Assembly (NCBI GenBank): GCA_002337125.1
Contig: DDFJ01000001.1
Coordinates: 967,342-1,031,341 of the forward strand
Length of the DNA stretch: 64,000 bases
Direction of reading: 5' to 3'
Origin: Chitinophagaceae bacterium UBA1931
GTDB taxonomy: Bacteria > Bacteroidota > Bacteroidia > Chitinophagales > Chitinophagaceae
The position numbers and the translations under genes were made by a program. Under the pieces are notes generated by a model. It was not told where the DNA came from, searched no databases, and saw only the letters and a program-made list of their open reading frames with translations. Position 1 is the first letter of the stretch; each line of letters opens with the position of its first letter. Of this stretch, positions 29,768 through 58,691 are shown in pieces.

Positions 29768-29796
29768 CTCACAGATTACACAGATTAACACAGAAA
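29768..29796. repeat. CACAGAT intergenic repeat
   Basis: ctcacagattacacagattaacacagaaa has three CACAGA units at 9-10 nt spacing. It lies between the two transketolase subunit genes. Confidence 0.7.
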
Positions 29797-29803
29797 TGCT
29801 TTG

Positions 29804-30634: not shown

Positions 30635-30642
30635 ACCTTATT

Positions 30643-30675
30643 CTCCCACAGATTTCTCAGATTAACACAGATAAG
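30643..30675. repeat. CACAGAT intergenic repeat
   Basis: ctcccacagatttctcagattaacacagataag fills most of the 49-nt gap between the isomerase stop and the transketolase-N start. Confidence 0.7.
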
Positions 30676-30683
30676 TTGAATGA

Positions 30684-36216: not shown

Positions 36217-36231
36217 ACAATCGTTTTTTAT

Positions 36232-36290
36232 CTCTCACAGATTTCTCTGATTAACACAGAAAAAAAATCTGTGAACATCTGTGCAACCTG
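36232..36290. repeat. CACAGAT intergenic repeat, extended copy with inverted units
   Basis: ctctcacagatttctctgattaacacagaaaaaaaatctgtgaacatctgtgcaacctg. The cacaga-A7-tctgtg part can form a hairpin. It occupies the 80-nt gap between the DUF1537 kinase stop and the SSS start. Confidence 0.7.
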
Positions 36291-36296
36291 TAAACT

Positions 36297-38441: not shown

Positions 38442-38542
38442 TTCGTCTTTATTTTTAAAACCCCGTCAGCGATTGAAAACCTTGATGGCGGTTTATATCT
38501 TATTATTTTTTGTAATCAGCTTTTGTGCTTCTTAATTACTCC

Positions 38543-38559
38543 TGTTGCGTCGCACACTT
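38543..38559. repeat. Copy A of the conserved 17-mer TGTTGCGTCGCACACTT
   Basis: Exact 17/17 match with 58692-58708. Both copies lie in intergenic gaps of minus-strand operons. The core TGCGTCGCA is palindromic. Confidence 0.6.
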
Positions 38560-38584
38560 GTACGGCAATAACTCTATTCAACTT

Positions 38585-39508: not shown

Positions 39509-40656
39509 TAAGCTGATTTAAAAATTGCCACTGCATCTTCTTCCTTAATTTCTCTCGGATTGTTTTTCAGCAGCCTTTGTATTTTCATTGCTTCCTGTGC
39601 CATTTGCGGAATGGTATCTTCTTTCACTCCCACTTCCCTCAACGTTGAAGGAATGCCACAGGCAGCATTTAACTCTTTAATTTTTGCAACACCTGCTTTT
39701 GCAGTAGCCCATGCATCACTCTGCCGTTCACAACCCAATGCCACTGCAACATCTGCATAACGATCAGGCGAAGCAACAATGTTGTATTCCATTACATAAG
39801 GCAACAGCACTGCATTGGATAAACCATGTGCCAGGTGATACATGCTTCCCAAAGGATACGACAACGCATGAACACCAGCAGTGTTCACCGGTCCAAGACA
39901 AAAACCTCCGTATAAACTTCCCATCGCTACTTTTTCCCTTGCTTCAACATCTGATCCGTTTTTAACTGCAGTAACAATGTTTGATGCAATTAAGCGCATG
40001 CCTTCGTATGCAAACATATCAATGAATGGCTGTGCGAATTTGTTGGTGTAAGCTTCCAGGCAATGTGTTAAAGCATCCATGCCGGTTGCAGCTGTAATGG
40101 AAGGAGGAACAGAAACCGTCAGTAACGGATCAACATAGACCACGTCAGGAACCAAAAAAGGACTGATGATTCCTTTCTTCTGGTTATCTGTATCATCAAC
40201 CAGGATTGCATTGGGCGATACTTCACTTCCTGTACCTGAAGTGGCAGGCACACAGATTAATTTTTTTGTTCTTCCTTTCAGCAAACCAATCCCAACATAT
40301 TCTCTTAACTGCTGTTGATTGTCTAATTGTGCTGCAACAAGCTTTGCCACATCCAGCACACTTCCGCCACCAATACCAATCACCACATCCGGATTAAACG
40401 GCTCCACTTTTTTCATCAGCTTTTCAAAATCACTGAAGTAAGGTTCGGCAACAATCGAAGTATCAATCATCACTTCAATTGATTGTTGTTTGAAAACAGC
40501 AACAAATTCATTGACGGTTTTCAGCAACGGTTCAATAGTTGCAACAAATATTTTTGAAGGATGATCTGCAAGTACATCATCAGCCAGTTGCGGCAATGTG
40601 CCATTGCCAACCACTAACTTACCGGGAAAAATAATTTTGAATGGATTGACAGACAT
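39505..40656 (-). CDS. Iron-containing (group III) alcohol dehydrogenase
   Basis: 383 aa with GIGGGSVLDVAK, the CVPATSGTGSE motif and the metal-binding His region DALTHCLEAY. Confidence 0.9.
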   Translation of the reverse strand: MSVNPFKIIFPGKLVVGNGTLPQLADDVLADHPSKIFVATIEPLLKTVNEFVAVFKQQSIEVMIDTSIVAEPYFSDFEKLMKKVEPFNPDVVIGIGGGSVLDVAKLVAAQLDNQQQLREYVGIGLLKGRTKKLICVPATSGTGSEVSPNAILVDDTDNQKKGIISPFLVPDVVYVDPLLTVSVPPSITAATGMDALTHCLEAYTNKFAQPFIDMFAYEGMRLIASNIVTAVKNGSDVEAREKVAMGSLYGGFCLGPVNTAGVHALSYPLGSMYHLAHGLSNAVLLPYVMEYNIVASPDRYADVAVALGCERQSDAWATAKAGVAKIKELNAACGIPSTLREVGVKEDTIPQMAQEAMKIQRLLKNNPREIKEEDAVAIFKSAY

Positions 40657-40665: not shown

Positions 40666-41649
40666 TTAATAAATCTTTTCAGAAAAGTTAACCGGAATCA
40701 GTGAAGGAATATCCACCTGTTTAATCTGCAACCTGTCGCACCACATCTGGAAACGATCATAAATCAGGTCGAGTGTTTTGCGCTGATCAGGAGTTAACTT
40801 GGTTGCAACTGCACGACTGATTGTACGTACAGGCAATCCACGTTTCTGTAAAAAGTATTTTGAACTCATGGGATAAGCCACATGAATCAACGGATCAACA
40901 CTTGTCAATTGTTCCTGCAGCCATGCAACATCATCCTGCTTTTCAGGATTGGTTGCATTGTTCACCATCCACACCATTACTTCGGGATAAAAGTTTCCTG
41001 AAATAGATGACATTCCTTTTGCACCCTGCAGCATACTGAAATGTGTATTAGGTGTATGTGCATCATAAAACTCAAGTTTTGTATTGCCTGTTTCTTTCAG
41101 CACATCTAATTTGCCTTTTACATTTTCATGCGTGATGGAAGTATCCTTATGATAAATCAAACGATTTGCAGAAAGTAACTGGCGGAATGTATCAGCAGGA
41201 ATAATGCGCTTGTAAGGAGCCGGGCACTCATACATACCCATCGGGATATTTTCTGTAAGCTTGAATATCTGTTCAAAATTGTGCAGCAGTACATCTTCAC
41301 CATCTTCTTCTTTTGCAAAGTGACCGGTGATCATGATCGCAGCATCAATTCCTGTATCATGAATCTTTTTGGTAAACTCTGCTTTATCAGCAATGGTTAA
41401 ACCAAACGAACCGGTTGCAACAATCGGCACACGACCATTTACTTTATTGACAATATGCTGTGTTAATTCAAGACGCTCATCTTCGGTAATGCTGAACATT
41501 TCACTGCTGAGGCAGTTGGCAAAAAAACCTTTCACACCTGCAGCCAGGTAAAACTCCACAAGAATACTTACCACATCAAGATCAACTTTAGCTTTCAGGT
41601 CAAACGGTGTAATCATCACCGGCACAAACTTACTTTCACTGTTATTCAT
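40666..41649 (-). CDS. Second DapA/DHDPS-family class I aldolase (divergent)
   Basis: 327 aa with PVMITPF, RVPIVATGSF and IYHKDTS (Lys). The usual GTTGE is replaced by CLSSEMF, which indicates a distinct subfamily. Confidence 0.8.
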   Translation of the reverse strand: MNNSESKFVPVMITPFDLKAKVDLDVVSILVEFYLAAGVKGFFANCLSSEMFSITEDERLELTQHIVNKVNGRVPIVATGSFGLTIADKAEFTKKIHDTGIDAAIMITGHFAKEEDGEDVLLHNFEQIFKLTENIPMGMYECPAPYKRIIPADTFRQLLSANRLIYHKDTSITHENVKGKLDVLKETGNTKLEFYDAHTPNTHFSMLQGAKGMSSISGNFYPEVMVWMVNNATNPEKQDDVAWLQEQLTSVDPLIHVAYPMSSKYFLQKRGLPVRTISRAVATKLTPDQRKTLDLIYDRFQMWCDRLQIKQVDIPSLIPVNFSEKIY

Positions 41650-41751
41650 TGCTATATGGCATTGATTTTAGAAAGAAAAAATTACAAAACTCAATACTAC
41701 AACTGTTCTGTTTTCTGCAAATGGAACATCCAACTATTTTAATGGAAGATG

Positions 41752-43362
41752 TTACAATTGCACATCACCACAGAAATGAACCTTGATACCCAGCTCGGCC
41801 AATGCAGCTGCTTTGATACGGCAGGCTTTATGAGCCGTTGCTTCATCAGGTGTATACACAACATGTATGTGATTTGCTTTATGTTTTGCCATCATCTGGT
41901 TTTGCGAAACTCCTTTCACAATTCCATGCATGATGGGCCATTGTGGATTTGTTGCATTCCAGCGGCGTTGTGTTTCTGCTTCGGGCAGATCAGCAACTTC
42001 ACCTACACCCAGGTCGCAATGAAGTTCATCTTTCACCAGGTAAATACGGCTCCATACAATTGAACCAGGTTTGCTGTTTCCTTTCAACGTACCACCACCT
42101 TTAGGGAAAAACATTGGCGGCTGACGGTCACTGCTTGCACCGGCATATCCATTAATGAAATGTGCTGCAGGTGCTGCACCTGAAATTAAAAACACCCACA
42201 CGAAAGCATCAGTCTTTTCATCTTTGTAATATTGTCCCCAACGCAGATCATGCAAGGTATTTTCTCCACTCATACCTAATTCATTCCACAATTTGTAAGT
42301 GATAAGCGAATCAAGTCCTGCACATTCATCCACTTCATTAAAGTGAGGAATAGCTTTTCCAGCAAACAATTCTTTTCCGTTTGTATCAAACACCGGAGGA
42401 CGTTCAGTGTTATTCAGTAAACCTTCCACCAGATCACTTGCTGCACAAATATCTTTCAGTCCCTGCTGGTATTGAATGCCGATTGTTGCACATCCAAACC
42501 AATCAGCCAAACGTACTGCAGCGATATACATTTTACATTGCTCAAGTGTTTGTTCTTTTGTCAGTTCAGTTGCATAATCAGTGCCCCAGTTAAACTTCAT
42601 TCCTTTATCAAGCAGCCATTGCAATACCGCATTTGCTTCTTCATCTTTCACCGTTAACATCTCTGCAAACAATGCACTCTGGCTGAGACGTTCTTTAAAG
42701 ACGCCTGTTTCATGTAAAACAGAATCAGGGATAATGGCATTATACATTCCCATACAACCTTCATCAAACACACCCATGATTGCTTTTTTCTTACGGAATG
42801 CTTTTGCAAATGCTCTTCCCTGCTCTTCTTCCTGCAAAGGAATTTTGATGAGATCAAAATCTTTTACATGACTGCAGTCGTGTGTAATCTTTCCTGTTTG
42901 TAACCATTCGGTCAAACCATCTAAGAAAAATGCATCATCAAAATTTTCACTCCACAAGGTGCTGTAGTTAACTCCTGCTTTTGTGAGTGAACCATTTAAA
43001 TTCAACAGACCAACAAGACCGGGCCATTCACCACTCCAGTTAGCAACTGTTAAGATGGGTCCTTTATGTGTGGTTAATCCTGCAAGCACATGATGACTGT
43101 ATTGCCATAAACTTTCTGCCACAATCAGTGCTGCATTTTCATCAATATGGCTGAACACTTCCATGCCCATTTTCTGTGAATCGATCAAGCCATGTTGCTT
43201 TGCAGCATCATAAGCATGTGTACGTTTAACGGTATAACCTTTTTTTGCCAATACTGCACTGAGTTGTTTTTCCATTTGTTCCTGTGCAGGCCAGCAGGTG
43301 ATATTTGCTGAAGGACGGGAATCGCCACTGGCAACTAAAATGATTTCTTTTGTATTGTTCAT
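41752..43362 (-). CDS. L-fucose isomerase (FucI)-superfamily sugar isomerase, about 540-aa subfamily
   Basis: 536 aa. The C-terminal pattern [19 protein letters not shown]...[15 protein letters not shown]...[10 protein letters not shown]...[10 protein letters not shown] parallels E. coli FucI (TRVNIIKG...LQIAEG...RTNSTWPTTWF...ANHGVLTIGH...IPVCMHN). The alignment was made from memory only. Confidence 0.6.
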
Positions 43363-43379
43363 ATAAAATGATTGTATTA

Positions 43380-44936
43380 TTAAGAAGATTGTTTTTTGAA
43401 TTTAGTAAACAGTACACCCACTAGAAAAATGGAAAGTGTACCCACAACGATGATCATGTTTTTATGTAAAGATGATTTTACAAATGAATATTCAGCTGGA
43501 ATACGATCAGAAAAAGTCATCCATAAAATCACGATCACGCCAGCAAGGGTGGCAATGATGGCTTCTGTGTTTTTTGTTTTTTTGCTGATGAGTCCCAGTA
43601 GAAACAGTCCAAGCATGCCACCTGCAAAAATGCCGCTCAGCTCCCACCATATATCCAACAAGCTTTTTGCACCAATCATGGCAAGACCTGTTGTTAAACC
43701 AATCAAACCAAACACAACTGTTGAAACATGCAGCAGGAACAATTTTTGCTTATCCGTTATTTCAGGTTTAAAATATTTCTGGTAAATATCAACTGTAAAA
43801 ACAGTTGCCGATGCATTCATGTTGCTGCTGATGGTACTCATTGCGGCCGATAGCAATGCTGAAACAATTAAACCAACCAAACCTGTGGGAATATTATTCA
43901 CCATAAAAAACGGCAACACTTTATCGCCATAATCAGAAGGTTTGAATGATGCAGCAAGTTGATGAATCTGCTCCTGTGTTGCTGATACACCTAAACGCTC
44001 TGCAGCCACCTGCAGTTTAACGGGATCAATTAATCCCGGTTGTGATTGATAAAATGCATACAGTGCTGTGCCAATCACAAAAAACAAAAACGATGCAGGT
44101 ACATAAATCCACACACATAACCAGATGGACTTACTTGCCTGTTTTGAGTTTTTAGCTGTATGGTAACGCTGAATATAATTCTGGTCCATACCAAAATTAT
44201 TCAGATTGATAAAGAAGCCATACAGGAGAATCACCCAGAAAGTTGATTGTGTAAAATCAGGTTTAAAACTGCCGAGACTTATTTTATGATCTGCCGTTGC
44301 AATCGCTGTGATCTTTGAAATACCACCGGGAATTTCTTTGATCACTAAAAATAAAATGAGCAATGCACCGAGTGTTTTAATCACACCTTGTGCAACTTCT
44401 GTCCATATCACAGCTTCCATTCCACCAAGAACGGTGTAGATGATGATACAGATACCCATTACAATCATAATGGATTGCATGCTGAAACCGGTTAATGCCT
44501 GCAAGCTTAATGCAATACCGAAAAAGATAGAGCCCATCCGTGCAAACTGCGTCAGCAAAAAACAAACAACTGCATATGTTCTTGCCCATGGGCCAAAACG
44601 TTTTTCAAGATTGGTGTATGCAGATATTTCACCTGTGTTTCTGTAAAATGGTACAAAATATTTTGATGCAAACCATGCAGCCAGCGGCATGGATATACTG
44701 AACACAAATGCATTCCAGTTGCTGCCAAATGCTTTGCCCGGCACTCCAAGAAATGTGTTACTGCTGAGAAAAGTTGCATAGATGGACAAACCAATTGCCC
44801 AGCCGGGAATTTTTCCTGAAGCTTTGGTAAACTGGTCGCTGTTTTTATTCTTACGTGAAAAATAAAAACCGATGCCTATCATCGCAAGCATATAACAGGC
44901 AATCACCGCAAGATCAATAAATGGCAAGTTGTGCAT
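43380..44936 (-). CDS. Sodium:solute symporter (SSS family)
   Basis: 518-aa polytopic protein with [30 protein letters not shown]. It is a paralogue of 34648-36216. Confidence 0.9.
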
Positions 44937-44946: not shown

Positions 44947-47900
44947 TTAATCGTTAGTAGTTATACCGGTTATTTTTAATGCTCCCGGCCATTCTTTATT
45001 TACAATTTCTTTCAACTCCAGTTTAGAAGGATCTAACACAACATGTTTTATCCGTTCTCTTCTCCACGTATAAACAATGTGTACCATTCCATCTTTTGTT
45101 TGTATAACTGATGGGTATGAATACTGGCTGATTGGAGAATCTTCCAGTACAATAGCTGCATACCATGTTTTACCATCTTTACTGATTGCAACATTCAGCG
45201 GAGTGCGTGGTCCTTTCCCTTTGTACCATGTTGAGTCGGGTAATGTGTGATTATATACCAGTAACTGTCTTCCGTCTTTCAACGTTACTGCATCTGTTCC
45301 TGAATTATTATTGGGCAATGCGGAAGGTTTCATTGCAGACCATGTTTTACCGCCATCATAACTCCAGCTTTCGTTGATGGTTGTATTACGGCTGCGGCAT
45401 AAAATTTGCAAACGGCCATCTTTATATTTTAAAATACTTGGCTGTATTGCCTCAATTGTTTTTCCATCGTTGATGTCTTCACTCTTTGTCCATGTTTTAC
45501 CATAATCCGTAGTGAATTCAATATGCGCTTTCCAACCTGTTTTTTCTGTACTGCTTGGACAAAGCAAAACTCCATTGATGAGTTCAGGTTTGTTTTTAAT
45601 TGGTCCTAAAAATCCTTCAGGTAATGCTTCACGTTTGCTCCATGTACGACCATTGTCTTTGCTGCGCATCATCCATCCCGTCCAGCCGGCAACGTTAGGT
45701 CCTATTTTGTAGAACAATAACAATTCTCCGTTGGGCGCATAAAACAAAACAGGATTATAACAGGCATAACGCACTGAATCATTCATCACACCATCAGCAA
45801 CTTTTTCAGGAACAGTCCATTTACCTTTTACCAATCGGCTTGTCCATAAACAAACATCACTGTAACCTTCTTTTGTTCCGCCAAACCATGCAGCAATTAA
45901 ACCATCCGGTGTTTCAGCAATGGTGGAAGCATGGCTTTCAGGAAACGATGCACGGTTGAAAATAAATTCATCTGTCACCACTCCTTTCCTGTATTTAAAT
46001 GTTGATACAAAATGATAACTGCCTGAACCGATTTCAAACACAGCAGTTCTTCCTTCCATACCAATGAGCTTTACGCCGTTTGCCTTTGCTGCAGCAAGAT
46101 TATTTTCCATTACATCCTCACCTGAAGATGCAGGAATATAAACCACTGCTGAACTGTTTGCAGGAACAGTTATATCCCAGGTAAACTGCTGGTTCGTTTT
46201 CTTCCAGCTGCTCTTAATCGTTCCATAGAGTGTATTGTAAGATGCGGTTGCAAAATTCAACCCATCAATATTTTCGGGTTTCATGATAATCTTTTTGAAG
46301 CCCACTTCTGTTTCATCTGATTTAATACCTGCAACATGTTCATATAACCAGATCAGCAGATCACCAAGAATCATCACATGGTTTTGTGAGTTCATCCATG
46401 GATTTGCTGTATTACCATTCCACAACTCCCAGATAGTTGTTGCACCACTCTCAGCCATATAACCCCAGCTGGGATATGTTTTGTTTGATGCAAGTGTGAA
46501 TGAAATATCGGGATGCTGAAATTTCGTTAACGTTCTCATCAGCCATTGTGTACCTATTACACCTGTGCTGATATGCATATTTTTTTCAATCCTGATTTTT
46601 GTGTAGATATTATTGAATACTGCTTCTTTGTTCGCATTATCCACCATATCAAAATACAAAGGCAGTAAGTTAGACGTGATGCTGTTATTGGCGTAATATT
46701 TTTTCGAAGCATTGTAAAACTTATTGTTGAATGCCTGTTTCACATTTACAGCAAGAGATGCATATTCATTTACATCCTGCTCGTTATGACTGATCTTTGC
46801 AAATTTCTGCATCAATCCAAGAAGGTAATAATAGTATGATGAAGCGATCAGTTCTCCATCTGTATTCAGCATGCTGTCTTTTGCATGAATGAGTTCAAGA
46901 CTTTCGGGAGGTACACACCAATCACCATAGCTGTCTCTTGAAATGAGATAGTTCTTCATGTACTTTGTTTCCATCATCTTCATCCACTTACGCATGGATG
47001 GATAATGTTTTACAACCGATGCAGCATCACCAAACTGCCTGTACAGCATATCAGTGACTGTTAAATAAGTTCCGGGCCAGGTAACATTATCAGTATAATA
47101 TTTTTTGTAGGCAGGAACAATATCAGGAATAGTTCCTTCTTCAGTTTGGGCATCCTGCATATCGTTCAGCCATTTGGCATAAAGCTTAGCATTGTCAAAC
47201 AAAAAACTTTCGCCATAACAACCAATAGCATGATCGCCCAACCAGGGCTGACGTTCATCACGCTGCGGACAATCAACCGGCATTCCTTTGTAGTTGGATG
47301 AAATTCCCCACCATGCATTTTTCAATACTTTGTTGATGATGGTATCAGATGTCTGCAGTGAACCGGTTGTAGCAAATCCGTCATACACAACCATTCCTTC
47401 AAAATCATTTACAGTGGGAACACCCGGATAACCGGTGATTTCAACAAACCTGAAACCGTTGTAAATAAATGATGGATGCCAGACCTCCACACCAGTTCCT
47501 TTCAACGTGTAGATATTTGTTTGATAGGCGCTGCGAAGATTGGCAGTGTACAAGGAATCGTTTGGCTGTATGCTTTCCGCAAAACGCATGGTTACTTTTG
47601 TTCCTGCATTGCCTTTTACTTTCAGTTGTAACCAACCTGCAAAGTTTTGGCCCATATCAAGAACGTAAGTTGTAGTGCCTGTTTTTTTAATTGATAAAGG
47701 TTTGATGGTTTTCATCACACGCATTGGCTCATTCATCTGTGCACGAAGCACACCATCAGGAGCTTTTACAATTTCAGGTGTTAACCATTTCGAGTCATTG
47801 TAATTAATATTATTCCATCCAGTCAGTTCTTTTGTTGCATCATATTCTTCGCCATCGTATTCATTGGCTGTGCGTACAGGTCCATCCACATTCAGTTTCC

Positions 47901-48738
47901 AGCTTTCATCTGTTACAATGATTTGCTTTGAACCATTTGCATATTCAATTTCCAACTGAAGCAACATTTTAGGAAAACCGAAATTCAATAAACGATCGGT
48001 TTTAAAATTCTGGCGCATATTAAAGAAACGGCCATTGCCCAACGTTGCAGCAACAGCATTCTTTCCTGCACGCAGCATTGTTGTTACATCGTATGTATTG
48101 TACTGAACTGTTTTACGATAATCGGTTGGTGATGGAGTTAATACATTATTACCAACTTTCTTTCCGTTAATAAAGAGTTCGTACAAACCAAGACCAACGA
48201 TATAAACTTTCGCTGATTTGATTGTTTGTGCAGAAGTAAATTCTTTACGCAGGTAACGGGCCGATAATCTTGCATGCATCACCATGCTGTCCCATGCGGA
48301 TGCTTTATCATAACCAATCCATTTCCCTTTCCAGTCATCTTTGTTCAGCAAACCAATGCTGAAGTAAGCAGTTTTGCTCCATTCACTTGTTCCTTTATTC
48401 GTAACGATTTTTACTTTCCAATAACAGGTTGTTTTGCTTTGCAATGTTTTACCATTGTAAACAACATGCACCGACCGACCAGAACTGATTGTTCCTGAAT
48501 TCCATAAATCACCAATGTTCTGATTCAGCATTTCAACAGATGAAGCAACAATCAACTGGTACGACTGCTGCTGAACATTTCTTTGAGTTGAATTGATCTG
48601 CCAGCTTAAGCGTGGTTGTGTTACATCAATCCCCAATGGGTTTACCAGCATTTCGCAGTGGAGATCAGTAACAGACACTTGTGCCTGCATTGAAAGCACA
48701 CTCAAAAATCCAATCAGTAAAACAAAAATCCTTTTCAT
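44947..48738 (-). CDS. GH78 alpha-L-rhamnosidase fused to a C-terminal sialidase-fold (BNR/Asp-box) domain
   Basis: 1263 aa with a signal peptide. GH78 motifs are LHCEMLVNPLGIDVTQPRLSWQI and GMPVDCPQRDERQPWLGD. From about residue 895 (nt about 44950-46060) there are four Asp-boxes: SKDNGRTWS, TTDYGKTWT, SYDGGKTWS and SKDGKTWY. This region also has FPESHASTIAETPDGLIAAWFGG. There is a 1-nt TAATG stop/start overlap with the GH2 gene. Confidence 0.85.
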   Translation of the reverse strand: MKRIFVLLIGFLSVLSMQAQVSVTDLHCEMLVNPLGIDVTQPRLSWQINSTQRNVQQQSYQLIVASSVEMLNQNIGDLWNSGTISSGRSVHVVYNGKTLQSKTTCYWKVKIVTNKGTSEWSKTAYFSIGLLNKDDWKGKWIGYDKASAWDSMVMHARLSARYLRKEFTSAQTIKSAKVYIVGLGLYELFINGKKVGNNVLTPSPTDYRKTVQYNTYDVTTMLRAGKNAVAATLGNGRFFNMRQNFKTDRLLNFGFPKMLLQLEIEYANGSKQIIVTDESWKLNVDGPVRTANEYDGEEYDATKELTGWNNINYNDSKWLTPEIVKAPDGVLRAQMNEPMRVMKTIKPLSIKKTGTTTYVLDMGQNFAGWLQLKVKGNAGTKVTMRFAESIQPNDSLYTANLRSAYQTNIYTLKGTGVEVWHPSFIYNGFRFVEITGYPGVPTVNDFEGMVVYDGFATTGSLQTSDTIINKVLKNAWWGISSNYKGMPVDCPQRDERQPWLGDHAIGCYGESFLFDNAKLYAKWLNDMQDAQTEEGTIPDIVPAYKKYYTDNVTWPGTYLTVTDMLYRQFGDAASVVKHYPSMRKWMKMMETKYMKNYLISRDSYGDWCVPPESLELIHAKDSMLNTDGELIASSYYYYLLGLMQKFAKISHNEQDVNEYASLAVNVKQAFNNKFYNASKKYYANNSITSNLLPLYFDMVDNANKEAVFNNIYTKIRIEKNMHISTGVIGTQWLMRTLTKFQHPDISFTLASNKTYPSWGYMAESGATTIWELWNGNTANPWMNSQNHVMILGDLLIWLYEHVAGIKSDETEVGFKKIIMKPENIDGLNFATASYNTLYGTIKSSWKKTNQQFTWDITVPANSSAVVYIPASSGEDVMENNLAAAKANGVKLIGMEGRTAVFEIGSGSYHFVSTFKYRKGVVTDEFIFNRASFPESHASTIAETPDGLIAAWFGGTKEGYSDVCLWTSRLVKGKWTVPEKVADGVMNDSVRYACYNPVLFYAPNGELLLFYKIGPNVAGWTGWMMRSKDNGRTWSKREALPEGFLGPIKNKPELINGVLLCPSSTEKTGWKAHIEFTTDYGKTWTKSEDINDGKTIEAIQPSILKYKDGRLQILCRSRNTTINESWSYDGGKTWSAMKPSALPNNNSGTDAVTLKDGRQLLVYNHTLPDSTWYKGKGPRTPLNVAISKDGKTWYAAIVLEDSPISQYSYPSVIQTKDGMVHIVYTWRRERIKHVVLDPSKLELKEIVNKEWPGALKITGITTND

Positions 48739-51518
48739 TATTGTGCAGAAAAATTAAAGTATAAAGAAATATGCAAAGCCCTTGAAGGTTCTTTTTCGTA
48801 ATCGTAATAAATATTTTTGAAACCCATTGGCCCGGTTGTTTCGTTACGCTGGTTCTTTGTTCCGATGCTGCTTATACCCTGCATAAATGAAATATCACCC
48901 GAAGGGAACAACGGTTCATAATTATGCCACTGATCTGTTTTCCATGCAGGTGTAAACAAACGCAGAAACATTCCTTCTGTTTCACTTACAACTGTAAAAC
49001 GATTATTCTTTGTAAAGAAATAACCTCCGTAAAAATTGGAATAATAACCTTTGAATTCAGGATAGATCCATGGATTCTCTCCTGTTTCAGTTGCATTGTA
49101 TTGTTTATTCCAGACACCAAACTGTCCGCCTTTCATCCTGTTCTTCCAAATACGGTATGGTCCGTTACCCATATAAGTAACCGACTGAATTTCTTTTTCA
49201 GGAAATGAAAAGTTGATGCCTGCAAAATTGGTAAAGTATGCTGATGGAAAATAACTCACATCCAGTTTTATCCAACCCGATGGATAAACTGTCCACTTAA
49301 TCGTGTTGTAAGAATCTTTCTTATTAAATATTGATTCGATAACAAGATTTTTTCCATCCATGTAATGTTTGATGCCTTTGAAATTATTCACAGCTTCCTG
49401 CACAACAGGTCCGTTGTTAAACGGCAGATTACCACTTGCGTTTTTCACTGAAACAAGCAGACCGTTATTTTTATTGAACACTACAATCACATCTTTGATT
49501 GAAACAGTCAATAATGAATCAGCTTCTGAAGAATTGATTGCATTGTTTCCGTCTTTCACAACCATTCTTTCGCCTGTGCGTTTTGGACTGCTGATGATAA
49601 AACTCCAGGTAAATAATTCACGCTTATAAAAATCTGTGGCTGTTACATACAACACATCATAGTCATTCCATTCAGCCGGCATTTGTAACTGAAGCACACC
49701 CTTGTCACCGGGCTTAATATCAGTAGCAACTGCAGTTCCATCTTTCTCTTCTATATTTCTCAAACCAAACTTCCGCAGCTTCCATGTGAATGTACATTGA
49801 TTGATATTGGTAAAATGATAACGGTTTTCAATGTTCAGCTTTCCGTCAAATGCATCTGTAATTTCTTTTCGTTCAAAATAAACCGGGCTCCACACTTCTT
49901 TGATGGTATAATAACTTCCTTCCTTTTCATGATGCGGTCCAAGTATTCCGTCTGCTGCACGGTCTTTATCTGTATCAAGCGAATCATGCAGATCTTTTCT
50001 TACAACTGCATTATCTGCAAAGTCCCAGAGAAAACCACCTGCACTTAACGGGTTATGCCACATTTTTTCCCAGTAATCTTCCAGGCCTGCACCATGACCA
50101 CCATCAAACCATCCGTGAAGAAATTCGGTTGGCATTACAATCTCTTTACCGTTTTCATAATTGCCAATGCCATAATTGTATTCACGGTAATGCTGTGTAT
50201 CAAAACCTCCAAACAAATTCCATGGATGAACAACAGGACGTTGTTGAAAATCATATTGCGTAAACAAACTGTCCAGGTCAAGATTATGTCCACCTTCATT
50301 TCCGTTCGCCCAGAAAATAATGGAAGGATGGTTCATATCATGTACAATCATTTCCCCCACCAGTTTTGAACCAACCTTTGTATCATAATGACCATGCCAG
50401 CCGGTTAATTCATCCATTACAAACAACCCAAGCGAATCACATACATCCAAAAAATGATCATCGGGTGGATAATGACTCATCCGCACTGCATTCATGTTCA
50501 TGTCTTTGATGAGCTGCACATCTTCAATACTGTTCTGTTTGCTCATCGTTCTTCCTGTTTCCGGGCGGAAGGAATGACGGTTCACTCCTTTCATTTTCAC
50601 TTTCACACCATTGACATAAATACCATCTCTTTGTTTTACTTCAACTGTGCGGAAACCGATTTTTTTTGAAACAGAATGTACAATTTTTCCTTTTTTGTAA
50701 ACAGTAAATTCGCCAATATATAAAACCGGGTTCTCCGGATTCCATGCTGTTACATTTTTTATTTGTTTGCTGAATAAGAAATGTCCATAATTATCTCCTA
50801 CATCAATTGCATGAATTGTGTCGATCAATTTTCCTGTCGCATCTTTTAATGTAACAGTAGCTAAATCAGCTAAAAGAATATTAGTTGAAATAACACCAGT
50901 TAATAATCCTGAAGCTTTTGCATCAAAAGTAACACTGCCTATATTATTCTTAGGCAATACTTCTAACCATACCGGCCGGAAGATTCCGCCAAAAATCCAG
51001 AAGTCAGCCTTGCGTTCAGCTTCATTCACCGATTGATTGGCTGAATGTTTTGAAACAGTTACTTCCAGCAAATTTTCTTTGCCATACTTCAGCAGTTTTG
51101 TAATATCATATTTGAATGCATAAAAAGCACCTTGATGAATTTCACCTGCTGACCTGCCATTTACTTTCACCTCTGCATCGGTCATCACGCCTTCAAACAC
51201 AAGATTGATTGCTTTGTCTTTCCAGTTTGCAGGAACATTAAAACGATGCTTGTAAAATCCTTTTTCTTTTCCTCTTACACTGTCTTTTGCATAACCATAA
51301 TCGAATTTGCCAAATCCCTGTAACTCCCAGCAGGATGGAACAGCAATCGTTGTCCATTTATTGGCATTCATTCCACCGGTGCACATAAAATCCCAGTTCA
51401 CCGTTTGATCATTACCGGTGCCGGAGAGATACACTTTTTCTGTTTGCTGACCTAACAAGTCAAAAGTGAAAAGTGAAAAATAAAAAAGCAGTAACCCGTA
51501 TTGATATTTTTTACTCAT
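48738..51518 (-). CDS. Glycoside hydrolase family 2
   Basis: 926 aa with a signal peptide. Contains GVNRHSFRPETGR, NMNAVRMSHYPPDDHFLDVCDSLGLFVMDE and WANGNEG (acid/base). Confidence 0.85.
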   Translation of the reverse strand: MSKKYQYGLLLFYFSLFTFDLLGQQTEKVYLSGTGNDQTVNWDFMCTGGMNANKWTTIAVPSCWELQGFGKFDYGYAKDSVRGKEKGFYKHRFNVPANWKDKAINLVFEGVMTDAEVKVNGRSAGEIHQGAFYAFKYDITKLLKYGKENLLEVTVSKHSANQSVNEAERKADFWIFGGIFRPVWLEVLPKNNIGSVTFDAKASGLLTGVISTNILLADLATVTLKDATGKLIDTIHAIDVGDNYGHFLFSKQIKNVTAWNPENPVLYIGEFTVYKKGKIVHSVSKKIGFRTVEVKQRDGIYVNGVKVKMKGVNRHSFRPETGRTMSKQNSIEDVQLIKDMNMNAVRMSHYPPDDHFLDVCDSLGLFVMDELTGWHGHYDTKVGSKLVGEMIVHDMNHPSIIFWANGNEGGHNLDLDSLFTQYDFQQRPVVHPWNLFGGFDTQHYREYNYGIGNYENGKEIVMPTEFLHGWFDGGHGAGLEDYWEKMWHNPLSAGGFLWDFADNAVVRKDLHDSLDTDKDRAADGILGPHHEKEGSYYTIKEVWSPVYFERKEITDAFDGKLNIENRYHFTNINQCTFTWKLRKFGLRNIEEKDGTAVATDIKPGDKGVLQLQMPAEWNDYDVLYVTATDFYKRELFTWSFIISSPKRTGERMVVKDGNNAINSSEADSLLTVSIKDVIVVFNKNNGLLVSVKNASGNLPFNNGPVVQEAVNNFKGIKHYMDGKNLVIESIFNKKDSYNTIKWTVYPSGWIKLDVSYFPSAYFTNFAGINFSFPEKEIQSVTYMGNGPYRIWKNRMKGGQFGVWNKQYNATETGENPWIYPEFKGYYSNFYGGYFFTKNNRFTVVSETEGMFLRLFTPAWKTDQWHNYEPLFPSGDISFMQGISSIGTKNQRNETTGPMGFKNIYYDYEKEPSRALHISLYFNFSAQ

Positions 51519-51520: not shown

Positions 51521-53053
51521 TTATAACTTACCTGTAATCTTTTGCAACACTGGAGAAGAAGCCACTTTTTTTCCGTTCACCCACACAGTCAGTCCCTTTC
51601 CTTTCTTATATTTTGTTCCGTCTTCATCCCAAATGATGGTTACAATTTTCCCATGGTACAACACATTATCTAAACAAAACCATTTCCATTTATTGGCAGG
51701 AACCAACGGATTTACTTCAATAGTATCATCCCCTCTCGGACGTAAACCAAGCAATCCAGTTATTACTAAATCATTAAATGTTGAGTGATTGTAATAACGG
51801 CTACGCTCTGCATCGCCCATCAGCCAGTAACCTGTTTTTTCATCAAGGTATTCACCTACATAAGGTCGGCCACGATAGTACATTGACTCAACATAGGTTT
51901 GCAGCTGTTTAAAGTAATTACTGTCAGCAACATAATTCTGATTGTAATTATTCAACAGGTTAGCCATTGCTGTTAGCGTTTGCGATGTAGCGAAAGGCCA
52001 TACTGCCCCATCCCATTCGCAGGTGCCTGTACCATGTGTGCGGAACTGTGGATGACTTCTGTCGGCAGTTGTAATTCCAAATGGAGCAGAAAATGTTTTC
52101 GGATCAACAAGGTATTTCCATGCAACATTGTAGTTACTGTCGGGCATATTGAAATACCAGGGAATAAAACCAATTTCTTCTTTCACATGTGCCAAGGTAT
52201 CACCATGCTCTTTGAGTACTTCAAAAAAATTGTCTTTGCTGCTCCAGAGTTTTGCTTGTACAAGTTGTTTAATGGAATCAGCCTTTTTATAGTACAGCTG
52301 TGCAACATCAGTATTGCCATTCATCTTGGCGAGGTTTGCAATAGCTATTGCATTGCCATACATATATGCATTAATGGAAGGTCTTGCATTCTTCTCTTTT
52401 CTTCCGCCGCTGATGGTTTCTTCCATTGCATCACGCACATCGTATTGCCAGAATAAACCGCTGGCAGATTTTTTTTCCAGCTCCCAGTTTTTATAATCTT
52501 CTATAAGATCAGGCAATAAGCCAAGCACAAATTGTTTATCGTTGTTAACGAGATAGCGATTGTAAATCGCATCCATACTCCAACTGCTGTAAAAGCGAAG
52601 TTTCTTTAAAGGCTTACCTTCATTTCCCCTGTACCAGATGTTCAGGTTGTTATCCATGTAGGTTTTATCGTGCAGCCATCTTGATTCATAGACATGATGC
52701 CCCAATGCACTGGCGATAAGATTGTATTTATCCGCATAACTTCTCTGCACCAGAAATTCTGTGAACACAAATCCCTTTTCTGTTTTCTTGATGTGTTTAC
52801 GTAATGTCCACCAGCGGAAATAAAACATCTCTTCAAAGTTTTGCTGCGGACATTCAAACAACGGAACATTTTGTTTCATCCAGTTCCAAGCCTGTGCGTT
52901 TGGAATGGCCTGTTCAATATTGGGCGTTTCCATTGTGTTGAAATAATCAACATAATGTTTAAACTGATCGGCTTTAAGAACAAATGGTTTTTGTTGGGAT
53001 AAAGAAGATTGCGACAACAACAGAAAAAAAACAAAGAAGCACAAAGACTTCAT
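51521..53053 (-). CDS. Secreted (alpha/alpha)6-barrel glycoside hydrolase (MGH1/GH63-like; possibly GH142-like)
   Basis: The ORF track extends to 53131, but the signal peptide starts at MKSLCFFVFFLLLSQSSLSQ (ATG at 53053). CEWDGAVWPFATSQTLTAMANLL is a six-hairpin glycosidase motif. The family subtype is not verifiable by eye. Confidence 0.55.
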   Translation of the reverse strand: MKSLCFFVFFLLLSQSSLSQQKPFVLKADQFKHYVDYFNTMETPNIEQAIPNAQAWNWMKQNVPLFECPQQNFEEMFYFRWWTLRKHIKKTEKGFVFTEFLVQRSYADKYNLIASALGHHVYESRWLHDKTYMDNNLNIWYRGNEGKPLKKLRFYSSWSMDAIYNRYLVNNDKQFVLGLLPDLIEDYKNWELEKKSASGLFWQYDVRDAMEETISGGRKEKNARPSINAYMYGNAIAIANLAKMNGNTDVAQLYYKKADSIKQLVQAKLWSSKDNFFEVLKEHGDTLAHVKEEIGFIPWYFNMPDSNYNVAWKYLVDPKTFSAPFGITTADRSHPQFRTHGTGTCEWDGAVWPFATSQTLTAMANLLNNYNQNYVADSNYFKQLQTYVESMYYRGRPYVGEYLDEKTGYWLMGDAERSRYYNHSTFNDLVITGLLGLRPRGDDTIEVNPLVPANKWKWFCLDNVLYHGKIVTIIWDEDGTKYKKGKGLTVWVNGKKVASSPVLQKITGKL

Positions 53054-53120
53054 GACTCTTCCTGTCATTGAAACTTCCTGGTTCAAAAAAATTGTATTTA
53101 GAATTGATATTGATTTTATC

Positions 53121-54944
53121 CTACTCTGCACTTTTATATGTTTTTACACGATGAATGAAATAAACAGCTTCTTTATCTTTCTTATCTGCATTGGGTAAAT
53201 CATAATCCTGATCGGTTGGAGTATCCGCATTGGGAAAACGACGCAGAGAACCTGTTCTGAAAACCAAACGCTCAACTGATTCTACCGGCTGGAAACAAAG
53301 ATTAGGAGAAGCTTTACCGTTATTGATTGTTACATTATAAAACCGTGTGGTTGTATTTAATTCAATTTTGATTGTTACCGGTTCACCTGCATTGTATTTA
53401 CCAAGGCTTTTATTCCGATAGCCTTGCTTGGTTAAAAGGTTACCTGTTGAATCAAACATCAACCGTAATGTTGCCTGTCCTTTTTTATCCTGCAGTTCAA
53501 TTTCAAGATTACCTGTGTTGTTTTGTTTGGGTGTGATCGTGAATTCAACAACTACTCTTTTTGCTTCTGGAAATATCCGTTCTGCTTTTGCATAATCAAA
53601 CGGATCACTGTCGTGCAGTGCCAGTACTTTCTGCTGATTCAATTGTTCTGTTTGCACCCTGCACCATGCCGGGCTAAAAATATTCCACTCGTTTAATTCT
53701 GTTCCATCAGCCATTGACTTAAAATCATCATTCACATCTGTCGTTACTTTATCTTTCACAGGAACGTTAATCCTGCTTACCCAGATATCTTCCTTGTTCA
53801 TGCTGTAGGTGATCCACATATTATTATCAACAGGCTTTCCATCCGTTTCCTGGATTCCACGAACGTATTGTGGCCCGTAACTTTTGTACGCACCGCCATA
53901 ACGCAGAGATGTAATTTCACCGTTTATTAAAAGAAGATTTTTATAATTCAATCCATCATCACTGATGCTGATTGCAAGCGGCCAGCGAAACTCAGATGGA
54001 TTGTACACTGTTGCATATTTACCATCAGCAGTCCGTTGTCCCCATATTTTTGCATTTGCATTTACAAAACCCGGTGCTCTTAATGGATTGTACTGCCAGG
54101 TTTTTCCTTCATCAGCACTTGTACTTGTCAATGCATATTTCCACAAGCCCAGCACTTTTCCATTGGGAAGATGGTAATAGTTGAAAGCTTTGAAATCTTT
54201 CTTCAGCGGAATCAATGGATCAGTCCTGTCGCCTTCTTCAACTGTCTGCATCATCATCAACGGTGTGTTGAGAAATTCATCACATGCAGCAACAAAACCT
54301 TTGTCTTTAGAAGTTTTATAAAACGGGTAGCTTGTATTTTTTTCATTGAATGCGTGATTGTAGCGCAGGAAATAAATGGGGCCGAATGTTCCATCAGCTT
54401 TTATTTCCCTGATCACACGACCAATACCGTTACCATCATTCGGATCATCTTTTGCAGCAAGTACAATTCCATAAAAACCAATTGCAAATAAACGTTTGGC
54501 TTTTGATGTAAAAAATCCGATACGTTGATGCATCACAGCAAATGTATTTTTTGCTGTATCCTTTCCACCTTCTTTCACCGTTCCATCAGGAATTTTATAT
54601 GGAGGAAAAATTACGATTGGTGCAGACCAGTTATATCCGTCTTTTGAACACATGAGCAATGTTCTTCCCGGCGGCACATGTTCACCAACGGGATTGCTTA
54701 AGTATTCAAGATAAAATGTATTATTCCAGTAAGCAAGCATGGGTTGATGATTGTAGGTCCAGTTATTTACACCGGTATCAGCCCTGTTTGCACGCATCAC
54801 CTGGATATTATGCACGCCCACAACAGATGGCAGCTGCCCGTGATGATAATCTACATTCGACAATGTACTTCCTGTGTAATGAACAGTATCCTGCGCATTC
54901 ACACTTGCCGATAATAATAACAGTATATAAACGATTCTCTTCAT
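53121..54944 (-). CDS. Secreted Asp-box beta-propeller (sialidase-fold) protein with C-terminal beta-sandwich domain; candidate ulosonic-acid hydrolase (GH143-like?)
   Basis: 607 aa with a signal peptide. Asp-box-like motifs are SADEGKTWQ, CSKDGYNWS and SISDDGLNY. The C-terminal 200 aa are beta-rich. The family call is tentative. Confidence 0.45.
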   Translation of the reverse strand: MKRIVYILLLLSASVNAQDTVHYTGSTLSNVDYHHGQLPSVVGVHNIQVMRANRADTGVNNWTYNHQPMLAYWNNTFYLEYLSNPVGEHVPPGRTLLMCSKDGYNWSAPIVIFPPYKIPDGTVKEGGKDTAKNTFAVMHQRIGFFTSKAKRLFAIGFYGIVLAAKDDPNDGNGIGRVIREIKADGTFGPIYFLRYNHAFNEKNTSYPFYKTSKDKGFVAACDEFLNTPLMMMQTVEEGDRTDPLIPLKKDFKAFNYYHLPNGKVLGLWKYALTSTSADEGKTWQYNPLRAPGFVNANAKIWGQRTADGKYATVYNPSEFRWPLAISISDDGLNYKNLLLINGEITSLRYGGAYKSYGPQYVRGIQETDGKPVDNNMWITYSMNKEDIWVSRINVPVKDKVTTDVNDDFKSMADGTELNEWNIFSPAWCRVQTEQLNQQKVLALHDSDPFDYAKAERIFPEAKRVVVEFTITPKQNNTGNLEIELQDKKGQATLRLMFDSTGNLLTKQGYRNKSLGKYNAGEPVTIKIELNTTTRFYNVTINNGKASPNLCFQPVESVERLVFRTGSLRRFPNADTPTDQDYDLPNADKKDKEAVYFIHRVKTYKSAE

Positions 54945-58675: not shown

Positions 58676-58691
58676 TTCTGTTTTCAACTTT

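Follow-up and report, generated by a model that had tools for sequence, protein, structure and literature searches.

A GH78 rhamnosidase fused to a sialidase-fold propeller in a Chitinophagaceae locus for rhamnogalacturonan-II degradation: a probable counterpart of BT1013

Side chain C of rhamnogalacturonan-II (RG-II) has the structure Rha-alpha-1,5-Kdo-alpha-2,3-GalA, and one gene in the 64,000-nucleotide stretch of Chitinophagaceae bacterium UBA1931 DNA analysed here (the window) raises the question of whether a single polypeptide can remove first the rhamnose and then the Kdo, as a sequence-only reading had proposed. According to the ORF listing and translation, the gene is a single open reading frame with an ATG start, and the secreted protein of 1263 aa described earlier was borne out by the reading frame, its translation and a signal peptide recognised by eye, in which the same inspection found no lipobox cysteine. 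The stop codon of the upstream GH2 gene overlaps the start codon by 1 nt (TAATG), and 10 nt separate the stop codon from the next gene, which encodes a sodium:solute symporter. The Pfam domain matches of the whole protein are far beyond chance, and those of its N-terminal part are listed here together with the gene and the signal peptide.

44947..48738, minus strand: whole gene, encoding a secreted, probably bifunctional GH78 alpha-L-rhamnosidase / sialidase-fold (GH33-type) Kdo hydrolase (ORF, Pfam)
48679..48738, minus strand: signal peptide MKRIFVLLIGFLSVLSMQAQ, aa 1-20, Sec type, judged by eye
46003..48672, minus strand: GH78 alpha-L-rhamnosidase module, aa 23-912 (Pfam; NCBIfam; PDB 6i60, 3w5m)
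aa 23-132: Ig_Rha78A_N (Pfam)
aa 172-342: Bac_rhamnosid_N (Pfam)
aa 352-452: Bac_rhamnosid (Pfam)
46333..47370, minus strand: Bac_rhamnosid6H, the (alpha/alpha)6 catalytic domain, aa 457-802 (Pfam E 4e-103)
aa 804-879: Bac_rhamnosid_C (Pfam)
47251-47274, minus strand: DCPQRDER motif of the catalytic domain, aa 489-496, conserved in the 6i60 alignment
46420-46440, minus strand: TTIWELW motif of the catalytic domain, aa 767-773, conserved in the 6i60 alignment

The GH78 module is complete and its motifs are intact, with an N-terminal Ig domain, beta-sandwich domains, the (alpha/alpha)6 catalytic domain and a C-terminal beta-sandwich. Its PDB matches are rhamnosidases (6i60, E 4.5e-190; 3w5m, E 9e-154), and the NCBIfam rhamnosidase models match it far below their equivalog cut-offs. 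We take the catalytic Glu residues to lie in DCPQRDER and TTIWELW, as in SaRha78A.

The rest of the protein had been described as a complete BNR/sialidase-type propeller with four Asp-boxes and an SHASTI strand, and all of these motifs are present in the translation, at rechecked coordinates.

44950..46002, minus strand: six-bladed sialidase-fold beta-propeller, putative Kdo hydrolase domain, aa 913-1263 (Pfam, AF2, Foldseek, PDB profile)
aa 947-1221: BNR_2 (Pfam E 3e-90)
45640..45663, minus strand: Asp-box 1, SKDNGRTW, aa 1026-1033, blade 2
45490..45513, minus strand: Asp-box 2, TTDYGKTW, aa 1076-1083, blade 3
45340..45363, minus strand: Asp-box 3, SYDGGKTW, aa 1126-1133, blade 4
45163..45183, minus strand: Asp-box 4, SKDGKTW, aa 1186-1192, blade 5

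The completeness of the propeller was confirmed by the BNR_2 match, by an AF2 model with six blades (pLDDT 86.4, pTM 0.89) and by Foldseek, in which the best matches of this model were GH33 sialidases (E 1e-15, TM 0.73, identity ~16%). The Asp-box of blade 1 is degenerate. When a profile of the propeller was compared with the PDB, NanC/NanB matched at E 1e-15 and BT1020/GH143 (5mqr) at E 1e-6, and the Pfam search gave no Beta-prop_BT_1020 match in the domain; there is no solved structure for this propeller clade. The boundary placed at about residue 890 by the sequence-only reading was close, but the propeller really starts at ~913-920, exactly the residue at which stand-alone propeller homologues begin past their own signal peptide.

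In the active site, conservation was counted over 126 diverged representatives of the propeller family.

45919..45945, minus strand: FPESHASTI strand, aa 932-940, where sialidases carry the 'RIP' motif
45931-45933, minus strand: His936, in place of the first Arg of the triad (H in 122/126)
45442..45444, minus strand: Gln1099, at the position of the Tyr-activating Glu (NanB E541; HMM alignments; Q in 122/126)
45394..45396, minus strand: Arg1115, equivalent of the second Arg of the triad (NanB R557; HMM alignments; R in 126/126)
45205..45207, minus strand: Arg1178, equivalent of the third Arg of the triad (NanB R619; R in 120/126)
45115..45117, minus strand: Tyr1208, equivalent of the sialidase catalytic nucleophile (NanB Y653; HMM alignment; Y in 123/126)
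45058..45060, minus strand: Arg1227 (TWRRE), predicted on the active-site face of blade 6 (R in 111/126)

The Arg triad, Tyr and Glu of sialidases were thus recovered in part: the second and third Arg and the Tyr are present, but the first Arg is replaced by His and the Glu by Gln, so that the chemistry of the propeller may differ from that of classical sialidases. The equivalence of His936 to the first Arg follows from motif spacing in the alignment with the M. viridifaciens sialidase rather than from a structural alignment, and Arg1178 lies at most 2 residues off NanB R619 in the HMM alignment and exactly in place by the Asp-box spacing in M. viridifaciens. Thr1224 occupies the site of the Glu that would brace the first Arg in sialidases. 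Arg1227, whose place in the fold was derived from the secondary structure of the AF2 model, is a candidate stand-in for the absent first Arg. Approximately 15 polar residues, including the second and third Arg and the Tyr, are near-invariant among propeller representatives that share only 40-60% identity.

The survey of other genomes showed that the GH78-BNR architecture is widespread. It yielded at least 592 genomic relatives, in which the two parts are fused, split into adjoining genes or, in Bacteroidales, triple-fused with a TIM barrel. Among the best 80 loci of these relatives, 40 are fused and 33 carry a stand-alone propeller gene, mostly with its own signal peptide and with an orthologous GH78 gene directly upstream. 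The fusion also recurs, aligning end to end, in five or more other diverged lineages. A homologue in Dysgonomonas is 57% identical to the window protein over its full length and is encoded after GH88/105-like and GH140 apiosidase genes. Over 120 homologues, mean column conservation is higher for the propeller (0.82) than for the GH78 part (0.75). The propeller family itself comprises 721 clusters at E<=1e-30, mostly stand-alone, and its other fusion partners are GH2, an FGE-sulfatase-like domain and a melibiase-like domain.

The genomic context is an RG-II degradation locus. By Pfam, the neighbours in the operon encode a GH140 apiosidase, a BT_1020-like GH143 propeller (Dha hydrolase-like), DUF6298 and GH2; the BT_1020-type GH143 homologue lies 4.4 kb upstream, and the BT1020-type pair is encoded by two adjacent genes (53121-54944 and 51521-53131). 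Two genes on the downstream side may bear on the fate of the released sugar.

43380..44936, minus strand: sodium:solute symporter (Pfam SSF), directly downstream, candidate carrier for the freed sugar acid
40666..41649, minus strand: DHDPS/NAL-superfamily class I aldolase (Pfam DHDPS), candidate Kdo aldolase

The best PDB match of the aldolase was DHDPS, at E 1e-17 only, and the protein is far under every NCBIfam equivalog cut-off. The aldolase module had been placed about 1 kb downstream, but the first aldolase gene is really ~3.3 kb away, with the symporter between. In related loci the symporter follows the Kdo-hydrolase gene in 40 and the aldolase follows the symporter in 39, and this conserved synteny makes it plausible that freed Kdo feeds the downstream aldolase, whose substrate is putative. 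The earlier statement that the window lacks sialic-acid metabolism genes was essentially correct: no nanA, nanK or nanE equivalogs were found in the window, and its two DHDPS/N-acetylneuraminate-lyase-superfamily aldolases score far below the NanA cut-offs.

We consider it likely that the protein of this RG-II operon is a bifunctional exo-glycosidase, periplasmic or secreted, which takes first rhamnose and then Kdo off side chain C and corresponds, in a Lacibacter-like member of the Chitinophagaceae, to BT1013 of B. thetaiotaomicron. A single polypeptide with these two activities is supported by the BT1013 literature, the domain order, the RG-II locus, the synteny in Dysgonomonas, the conservation of the propeller, the presence of the second and third Arg and the Tyr, and the secreted homologues encoded by split genes. 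In the proposed mechanism, the N-terminal GH78 module would hydrolyse the terminal alpha-L-rhamnose 1,5-linked to Kdo; the propeller would then cleave the alpha-2,3 ketosidic bond between the Kdo thereby exposed and the backbone galacturonic acid, and a linker of under 10 residues would hold both sequential activities on one polypeptide. The freed Kdo may be taken up by the adjoining symporter and cleaved by the downstream DHDPS-family aldolase. Rhamnose would probably be removed before Kdo; only the fusion points to the linkage that the GH78 module cleaves, and the putative substrate of the propeller is Kdo, a choice over Dha or other ulosonic acids that is not readable from sequence.

Alternatively, the GH78 module might act on another rhamnosyl linkage of RG-II (chains A/B) or on another pectin, the fusion serving co-regulation and the propeller still hydrolysing Kdo that had been uncapped by another rhamnosidase. 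The GH78 enzymes of the B. thetaiotaomicron RG-II locus do vary in target, BT1019 being reported to act on a chain-B oligosaccharide, linkage specificity is not readable from the sequence, and the NCBIfam rhamnosidase equivalog models are matched far below their cut-offs. We regard this as unlikely, because in most of the best 80 loci the propeller is either fused to this GH78 orthologue or encoded directly downstream of it, because the fusion is collinear in the further diverged lineages, and because the GH78 domain of BT1013 has been assigned to chain C (PMC13501991). It is less likely still that the propeller hydrolyses another ulosonic acid, such as the Dha of chain D or the Kdo/Kdn-type sugars of bacterial or algal polysaccharides. 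The size of the propeller family, its mostly stand-alone members and its varied fusions suggest more than one substrate context, and the non-canonical active site leaves room on specificity, but a separate GH143 is encoded in the same operon, the propeller has no match to the Beta-prop_BT_1020 family, the fusion partner takes off the Kdo-capping sugar, and the BT1013 literature favours Kdo (PMC13501991).

The two substituted GH33 residues could also mean that the propeller is non-catalytic and, as a binding or structural module, brings the rhamnosidase to its substrate. This is very improbable for a domain that is conserved above the catalytic GH78 part, retains near-invariant polar residues, exists as a stand-alone secreted protein and has a homologous domain in BT1013 reported active as a Kdo hydrolase (PMC13501991). 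The fold and the best PDB matches are those of sialidases. NCBI-style annotation often labels such domains 'exo-alpha-sialidase'. A true sialidase or KDNase acting on sialoglycans is nevertheless barely credible, given the low identity to sialidases, the absence of the catalytic Glu and of the arginine of the RIP motif, the lack of nan equivalogs in the window, and the setting, a locus for plant pectin in a Chitinophagaceae lineage of soil or freshwater. A bifunctional enzyme for side chain C is thus the preferred reading.

Among known systems, BT1013 is the closest to this bifunctional enzyme. Its N-terminal GH78 alpha-L-rhamnosidase acting on chain C and its C-terminal Kdo hydrolase are both marked as experimentally validated (review PMC13501991), and it belongs to the RG-II PUL that the review summarises from Ndeh et al. 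2017. A GH78-Kdo hydrolase fusion has therefore already been described, and the idea is not new. The review leaves the Kdo hydrolase of BT1013 without a CAZy family, whereas Kdo hydrolase is counted elsewhere among the GH33 activities needed for RG-II breakdown (PMC9120202; PMC11214529), and CAZy enters it under GH33. A BT1013 deletion was counted among the mutants without enzymes initiating side-chain breakdown (bioRxiv 10.64898/2026.03.13.711244). BT1013 and the window protein share the order of a GH78 and a sialidase-like hydrolase on one secreted polypeptide, an RG-II locus with GH140, GH143 and GH2, and the proposed substrate. Furthermore, the gene order in Dysgonomonas matches that of BT1011 (unsaturated glycoside hydrolase), BT1012 (apiosidase) and BT1013 (PMC13501991; bioRxiv 10.64898/2026.03.13.711244). 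The window protein is probably the BT1013 orthologue, as judged by architecture, locus content and this gene order rather than by direct alignment. BT1013 was absent from the best-120 lists of the homologue searches and from the best 80 loci of the genome scan, so that its identity to the window protein is probably only ~40-55%, or else it stems from a different fusion lineage. The hosts differ (Chitinophagaceae versus Bacteroidaceae), and the symporter and aldolases lie directly downstream in the window, whereas free Kdo is reportedly secreted, not used, by B. thetaiotaomicron.

The triple fusion of GH78, BNR_2 and a xylose-isomerase-like TIM barrel (~1535 aa; Dysgonomonas, Tannerella and Prevotella-labelled MAGs) is collinear with the window protein over the first 1260 residues (57% identical), but adds a third domain, Pfam AP_endonuc_2, whose counterpart in the window is separate, in the C-terminal half of ORF 32405-34633 (53% identity). 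The GH33 exo-sialidases (S. pneumoniae NanB/NanC, the M. viridifaciens sialidase and B. thetaiotaomicron BT0455/4bbw) share with the propeller the six blades, the Asp-boxes and the second and third Arg and Tyr nucleophile at equivalent positions, but differ at His936, Gln1099 and Thr1224 and in overall identity (~16%), and the ulosonic acid proposed as substrate of the propeller, in contrast to theirs, has eight carbons and no N-acyl group. The sequence-only reading had named BT1020 and overlooked BT1013. BT1020 (GH143 Dha hydrolase and GH142 beta-L-arabinofuranosidase; PDB 5mqr) follows the same logic of two sequential RG-II side-chain enzymes per polypeptide, one partner being a sialidase-like propeller whose substrate is a 2-keto-3-deoxy sugar acid, but its propeller is of a different family, as the weak 5mqr match and the missing Beta-prop_BT_1020 match indicate.

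The protein of 1263 aa encoded on the minus strand by a single long ORF (44947-48738), as found in the ORF listing of the window, is an unannotated new case of a published architecture. Its translation carries the signal peptide MKRIFVLLIGFLSVLSMQAQ at the N-terminus and includes the FPESHASTI strand as well as the Asp-boxes SKDNGRTW, TTDYGKTW, SYDGGKTW and SKDGKTW, so every motif quoted in the sequence-only reading is present. The gene is tightly packed within its operon: its ATG overlaps the stop codon of the GH2 gene that precedes it (TAATG), and the downstream gene begins 10 nt past its own stop. The GH78 part claimed by the same reading is a complete five-domain Pfam architecture at residues 23-879, in which all five GH78 domains were found, including Bac_rhamnosid6H, the (alpha/alpha)6 catalytic domain with beta-sandwich flanks (E 4e-103). 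Solved rhamnosidases match this part (PDB 6i60, E 4.5e-190; 3w5m, E 9e-154), and the motifs DCPQRDER (aa 489-496) and TTIWELW (aa 767-773) align with the equivalent motifs of 6i60 and fit the patterns DCPxRDER and TxWExW. By analogy with SaRha78A, these two motifs would contain the catalytic Glu residues of GH78.

The published case of this architecture is BT1013 of Bacteroides thetaiotaomicron, for which a 2026 review (PMC13501991), citing the 2017 RG-II study, lists two activities on RG-II chain C as validated, namely alpha-L-rhamnosidase (GH78) for the N-terminus and KDO hydrolase for the C-terminus. The BT1013 deletion has been counted among the mutants without enzymes that initiate side-chain breakdown, and the neighboring BT1011 and BT1012 were described as an unsaturated glycoside hydrolase and an apiosidase, respectively (bioRxiv 10.64898/2026.03.13.711244). 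Furthermore, Kdo hydrolase is included in the GH33 activities of CAZy (list reproduced in PMC9120202), 'Kdo hydrolase (GH33)' is named among the enzymes needed for RG-II (PMC11214529), and a 2022 preprint gave Kdo and Dha as targets of GH33 members. The proposal of the sequence-only reading that the fusion removes Rha and then Kdo is therefore supported, because it equals the published function of the same architecture (PMC13501991), and by the same token it had already been published; that reading named the sister fusion BT1020 and left out BT1013. Both BT1013 and the window protein have the domain order GH78 then sialidase-like hydrolase on one polypeptide, and both are encoded among RG-II side-chain glycosidases (in the window GH140, GH143-type, DUF6298, GH2 and GH43-like). 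A homolog in Dysgonomonas capnocytophagoides is 57% identical over 1260 residues, and the gene order there (GH88/105-like, GH140 apiosidase, GH78-BNR homolog) is shared with BT1011-BT1012-BT1013. From the domain order, the type of locus, the relatives, and the D. capnocytophagoides gene order as a proxy, we infer that the window protein is an ortholog of BT1013. In protein searches with the window protein, with a Dysgonomonas triple fusion and with a profile of three diverged lineages, the best 120 matches listed were from Chitinophagaceae, Dysgonomonas and Prevotella; BT1013 was not among the best 120 of each search nor among the best 80 of at least 592 genomic relatives, and the two protein clusters examined contained no Bacteroides members.

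The sialidase-type propeller that had been read from the C-terminal part was borne out by the four canonical Asp-boxes, by the six blades of a structural model and by structural matches to GH33. BNR_2 of Pfam matches in full length (3-277 of 277) at residues 947-1221 with an E-value of 3e-90. The AlphaFold2 model of residues 913-1263, for which 21 homologs were used as input, has six four-stranded sheets (pLDDT 86.4, pTM 0.89), and its first Foldseek matches in the PDB were GH33 sialidases (E ~1e-15, TM 0.73, ~16% identity), with those of M. viridifaciens, P. gingivalis, P. acnes and human Neu2 at the top. When the PDB was searched by sequence, this propeller clade proved to have no solved member; the best matches were canonical sialidases, reached at E-values of 4e-7 with the single sequence, 1e-7 with a first profile (A1) and 8e-16 with another (A3). 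When the C-terminal 138 residues were the sole query, the single match was Dfer_1899 (5hx0), a protein of unknown function. Among the 120 closest full-length homologs, conservation is higher in the propeller (0.82) than in the GH78 part (0.75), and this conservation together with the conserved residues listed below is the pattern of an enzyme rather than of a passive module.

Conservation of candidate catalytic positions among 126 representatives sharing 40-65% identity with the query
His936: 122 of 126
Gln1099: 122 of 126, with Glu in only 3 of 126
Arg1115: 126 of 126
Arg1178: 120 of 126
Tyr1208: 123 of 126
Arg1227: 111 of 126

In profile alignments with the pneumococcal sialidases NanB and NanC, Tyr1208 falls on the nucleophile (NanB Y653) and Arg1115 on Arg2 of the sialidase Arg triad (NanB R557), while Arg1178 lies within 2 residues of Arg3 (NanB R619) and is spaced from the next Asp-box exactly as in the M. 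viridifaciens enzyme. The Tyr-activating Glu is absent from its expected position, that of NanB E541, where two independent HMM alignments placed Gln1099 instead. To judge from motif spacing relative to M. viridifaciens, His936 of FPESHASTI appears to be the counterpart of Arg1, the arginine of the RIP motif, and the family-conserved Arg1227 might stand in for Arg1. Spacing against the same enzyme suggests that a loop with the invariant residues Glu957 and Asp961 may correspond to the acid/base Asp loop; this is the sole low-confidence internal loop of the AlphaFold2 model, with low pLDDT at domain residues 45-48. An alternative registration was offered by a HMMER local alignment shifted by one blade, in which blade 2 of the query, with the first canonical Asp-box, was aligned with blade 1 of the M. 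viridifaciens and P. acnes enzymes and N995 with the RIP arginine. It was rejected because the matches to Arg2, Arg3 and Tyr are lost, whereas the unshifted registration has all three at the right spacings and is consistent with the long profile alignments to NanB/NanC. Of the sialidase triad, Tyr and Glu, the unshifted registration retains Tyr1208, Arg1115 and Arg1178, has Gln1099 in place of the Glu, and appears by motif spacing to have His936 at the Arg1 position; as read from the sequence, the active site is not that of a textbook GH33.

Upstream of the query gene, the following genes lie on its strand:

48738-51518, minus strand: GH2, upstream of the query gene
51521-53131, minus strand: MGH1-like (alpha/alpha)6 hydrolase
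53121-54944, minus strand: BT_1020-type GH143 propeller (E 1e-116) with sialidase-like CBM (E 5e-62) in Pfam
57284-58687, minus strand: GH140 apiosidase (E 2e-112)
further upstream genes, minus strand: GH63-like protein, GH43-like protein and DUF6298 protein

The glycosidase genes around the query gene lie on one strand with minimal gaps, and the locus is an RG-II degradation locus. A GH143 identity for the query propeller was rejected, since its Pfam matches include neither Beta-prop_BT_1020 nor the sialidase-like CBM, and a profile of 52 diverged stand-alone members of the propeller family (A3) reached NanC/NanB at E ~1e-15 but the GH143 enzyme BT1020 (5mqr) at 1e-6 only, which places the propeller nearer to GH33 than to GH143. 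Furthermore, a separate candidate for the Dha hydrolase (53121-54944) is already present in the locus, leaving Kdo as the natural substrate of the GH78-fused propeller. The BT1020-type pair is split in the window, where 53121-54944 and 51521-53131 are distinct genes with an 11-nt overlap and the latter is possibly the GH142 counterpart, whereas in B. thetaiotaomicron GH143 and its partner hydrolase form one protein, BT1020. For the 549-aa ORF at 61941-63590 (minus strand), which lies at the upstream limit of this glycosidase operon, Pfam gave no match at E<=0.001. A block of low GC content at about 10071-27074 on the plus strand (0.30-0.33, compared with about 0.40 elsewhere) encodes polysaccharide export and biosynthesis proteins and probably represents a variable capsule/EPS locus next to the RG-II genes:

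10071-12491, plus strand: Poly_export/SLBB protein
24007-25392, plus strand: Bac_transf sugar transferase
25437-27074, plus strand: Wzi

The architecture of a GH78 part followed by a BNR propeller recurs in other genomes. Across Bacteroidota, a scan of genomes for the propeller recovered at least 592 relatives, and in the best 80 of these loci the propeller is fused in 40, encoded by a stand-alone gene in 33 and cut by contig ends in 5. The stand-alone propellers (360-380 aa) each have their own signal peptide and begin at the residue where the fused domain also starts, and in most of these cases the orthologous GH78 gene is directly upstream on the same strand, a pattern typical of gene fusion and fission. 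Five or more additional, more diverged lineages of GH78-propeller fusions, including a large one in Prevotella, can be aligned with the window protein over its full length (39-45% identity). The propeller family comprises 721 clusters at E<=1e-30, which are mostly stand-alone, and other members have GH2 (P0269), an FGE-sulfatase-like domain (P0237) or a melibiase-like domain (P0313) as their fusion partner; it is therefore likely that this Kdo-hydrolase-like clade also serves other substrate contexts. According to a precomputed Pfam list, the 2688-aa JGI metagenome protein P0182 carries GH140 apiosidase, GH78, BNR_2 and TIM barrel domains on one polypeptide, with further domains that we take to be GH95-type, and is an extreme fusion of neighboring RG-II enzymes. 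The 90% cluster of the window protein includes a protein from a Lacibacter sp. MAG whose sole annotation is 'family 78 glycoside hydrolase catalytic domain'. Since the public names of the window protein and of hundreds of homologs are limited to this term or 'alpha-L-rhamnosidase', the Kdo-hydrolase half is systematically unannotated.

Downstream of the query gene, the same strand carries these genes:

43380-44936, minus strand: sodium:solute symporter, directly after the Kdo-hydrolase gene
41752-43362, minus strand: weakly FucI-like protein, below Pfam cut-offs
40666-41649, minus strand: first, divergent aldolase of the DHDPS/NAL superfamily
39505-40656, minus strand: lactaldehyde-reductase-like Fe-ADH
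38585-39508, minus strand: second aldolase, DHDPS family
37416-38441, minus strand: PdxA
36297-37415, minus strand: DUF1537/D-threonate-kinase-like protein
34648-36216, minus strand: second symporter
32405-34633, minus strand: esterase-like and TIM-barrel protein
within 27158-32105, minus strand: FGGY kinase, transketolase split into N and C halves in two genes, and isomerase-like protein (Fucose_iso_C)

The order GH2, GH78 with fused or separate propeller, symporter and aldolase is strongly conserved in related Chitinophagaceae loci; 40 related loci keep the symporter after the Kdo-hydrolase gene and 39 keep the first aldolase there, which supports a functional link. The idea of the sequence-only reading that released Kdo would feed the downstream aldolase is plausible, with uptake and cleavage of Kdo as putative steps: the genes at 40666-44936 could form a route from Kdo to pyruvate and D-arabinose, analogous to the Nan system for sialic acid. 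The FucI-like gene was found in only 5 of the related loci. The downstream transporter, the isomerase-like protein and the aldolases have no NCBIfam name at equivalog level, the FucI-like protein (41752-43362) has no PDB sequence match, and NCBIfam and PDB searches returned no close characterized relative of the first aldolase; the idea that the FucI-like protein is a D-arabinose isomerase is therefore a weak guess. A literature search gave nothing relevant on a Kdo aldolase at gene level or on a pathway of Kdo catabolism.

In about 20 loci, the genes of a second cluster (34648-40656, minus strand) are conserved together behind the first aldolase. Our guess is that this cluster serves Dha catabolism, by aldol cleavage to pyruvate and a C4 uronate, reduction to a tetronate, phosphorylation and PdxA-type oxidative decarboxylation to DHAP. 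The gene set within 27158-32105 resembles the transketolase-dependent D-apiose pathway, and it would fit the use of apiose released by the GH140 enzyme. The ORF at 32405-34633 encodes 742 aa, with an N-terminal half that resembles an esterase (weak match to GCE_fung) and a xylose-isomerase-like TIM barrel (aa 483-741) that shares 53% identity with the third domain (aa 1280-1538 in Dysgonomonas) of GH78-BNR_2-TIM triple fusions of about 1535 aa found in Dysgonomonas and other Bacteroidales; a counterpart is located at 7069-7845 of L063. In 27 loci this ORF comes behind the Kdo-hydrolase gene or behind the aldolase, and in NCBI calls the TIM part is sometimes a separate gene of 280 aa. The TIM barrel could be a third, unrecognized activity on side chain C.

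The two activities of the window protein are putative and are taken from the BT1013 literature. After export, the GH78 module would cleave the terminal alpha-L-rhamnose off O5 of Kdo, and the propeller would then hydrolyze the alpha-2,3 ketosidic bond to the backbone GalA, thereby freeing Kdo; this order is deduced from the chain C structure, and the linker of fewer than 10 residues would hold the two active sites together. The widespread clade of Kdo hydrolases with Tyr and two Arg, His for the RIP arginine and Gln for the Glu, possibly with a relocated third Arg (Arg1227), may not be classical GH33 in mechanism. The Chitinophagaceae symporter and divergent DHDPS-family aldolase would form a complete route of Kdo uptake and cleavage, so far uncharacterized. 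We regard the full combination, a mechanistically non-canonical Kdo-hydrolase clade, a hard-wired uncharacterized Chitinophagaceae module for Kdo uptake and cleavage, and the TIM barrel as a third chain-C activity, as tentative and rather doubtful.

The enzyme concept is not new, as the published model for B. thetaiotaomicron has since 2017 included a fusion of GH78 and Kdo hydrolase that acts on RG-II chain C. The survey of fused, split but adjacent, and triple-fused forms across Bacteroidota is useful for the annotation of RG-II loci in soil and rhizosphere bacteria, and the conserved downstream transporter and aldolase may define missing genes of bacterial Kdo catabolism. B. thetaiotaomicron and most of the Flavobacterium strains tested excrete Kdo and do not use it, and in other gut microbes no Kdo pathway has been confirmed; a module for Kdo uptake and cleavage would therefore be new, and the route proposed here for Chitinophagaceae would set them apart from B. 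thetaiotaomicron and most of those Flavobacterium strains, which are without it.
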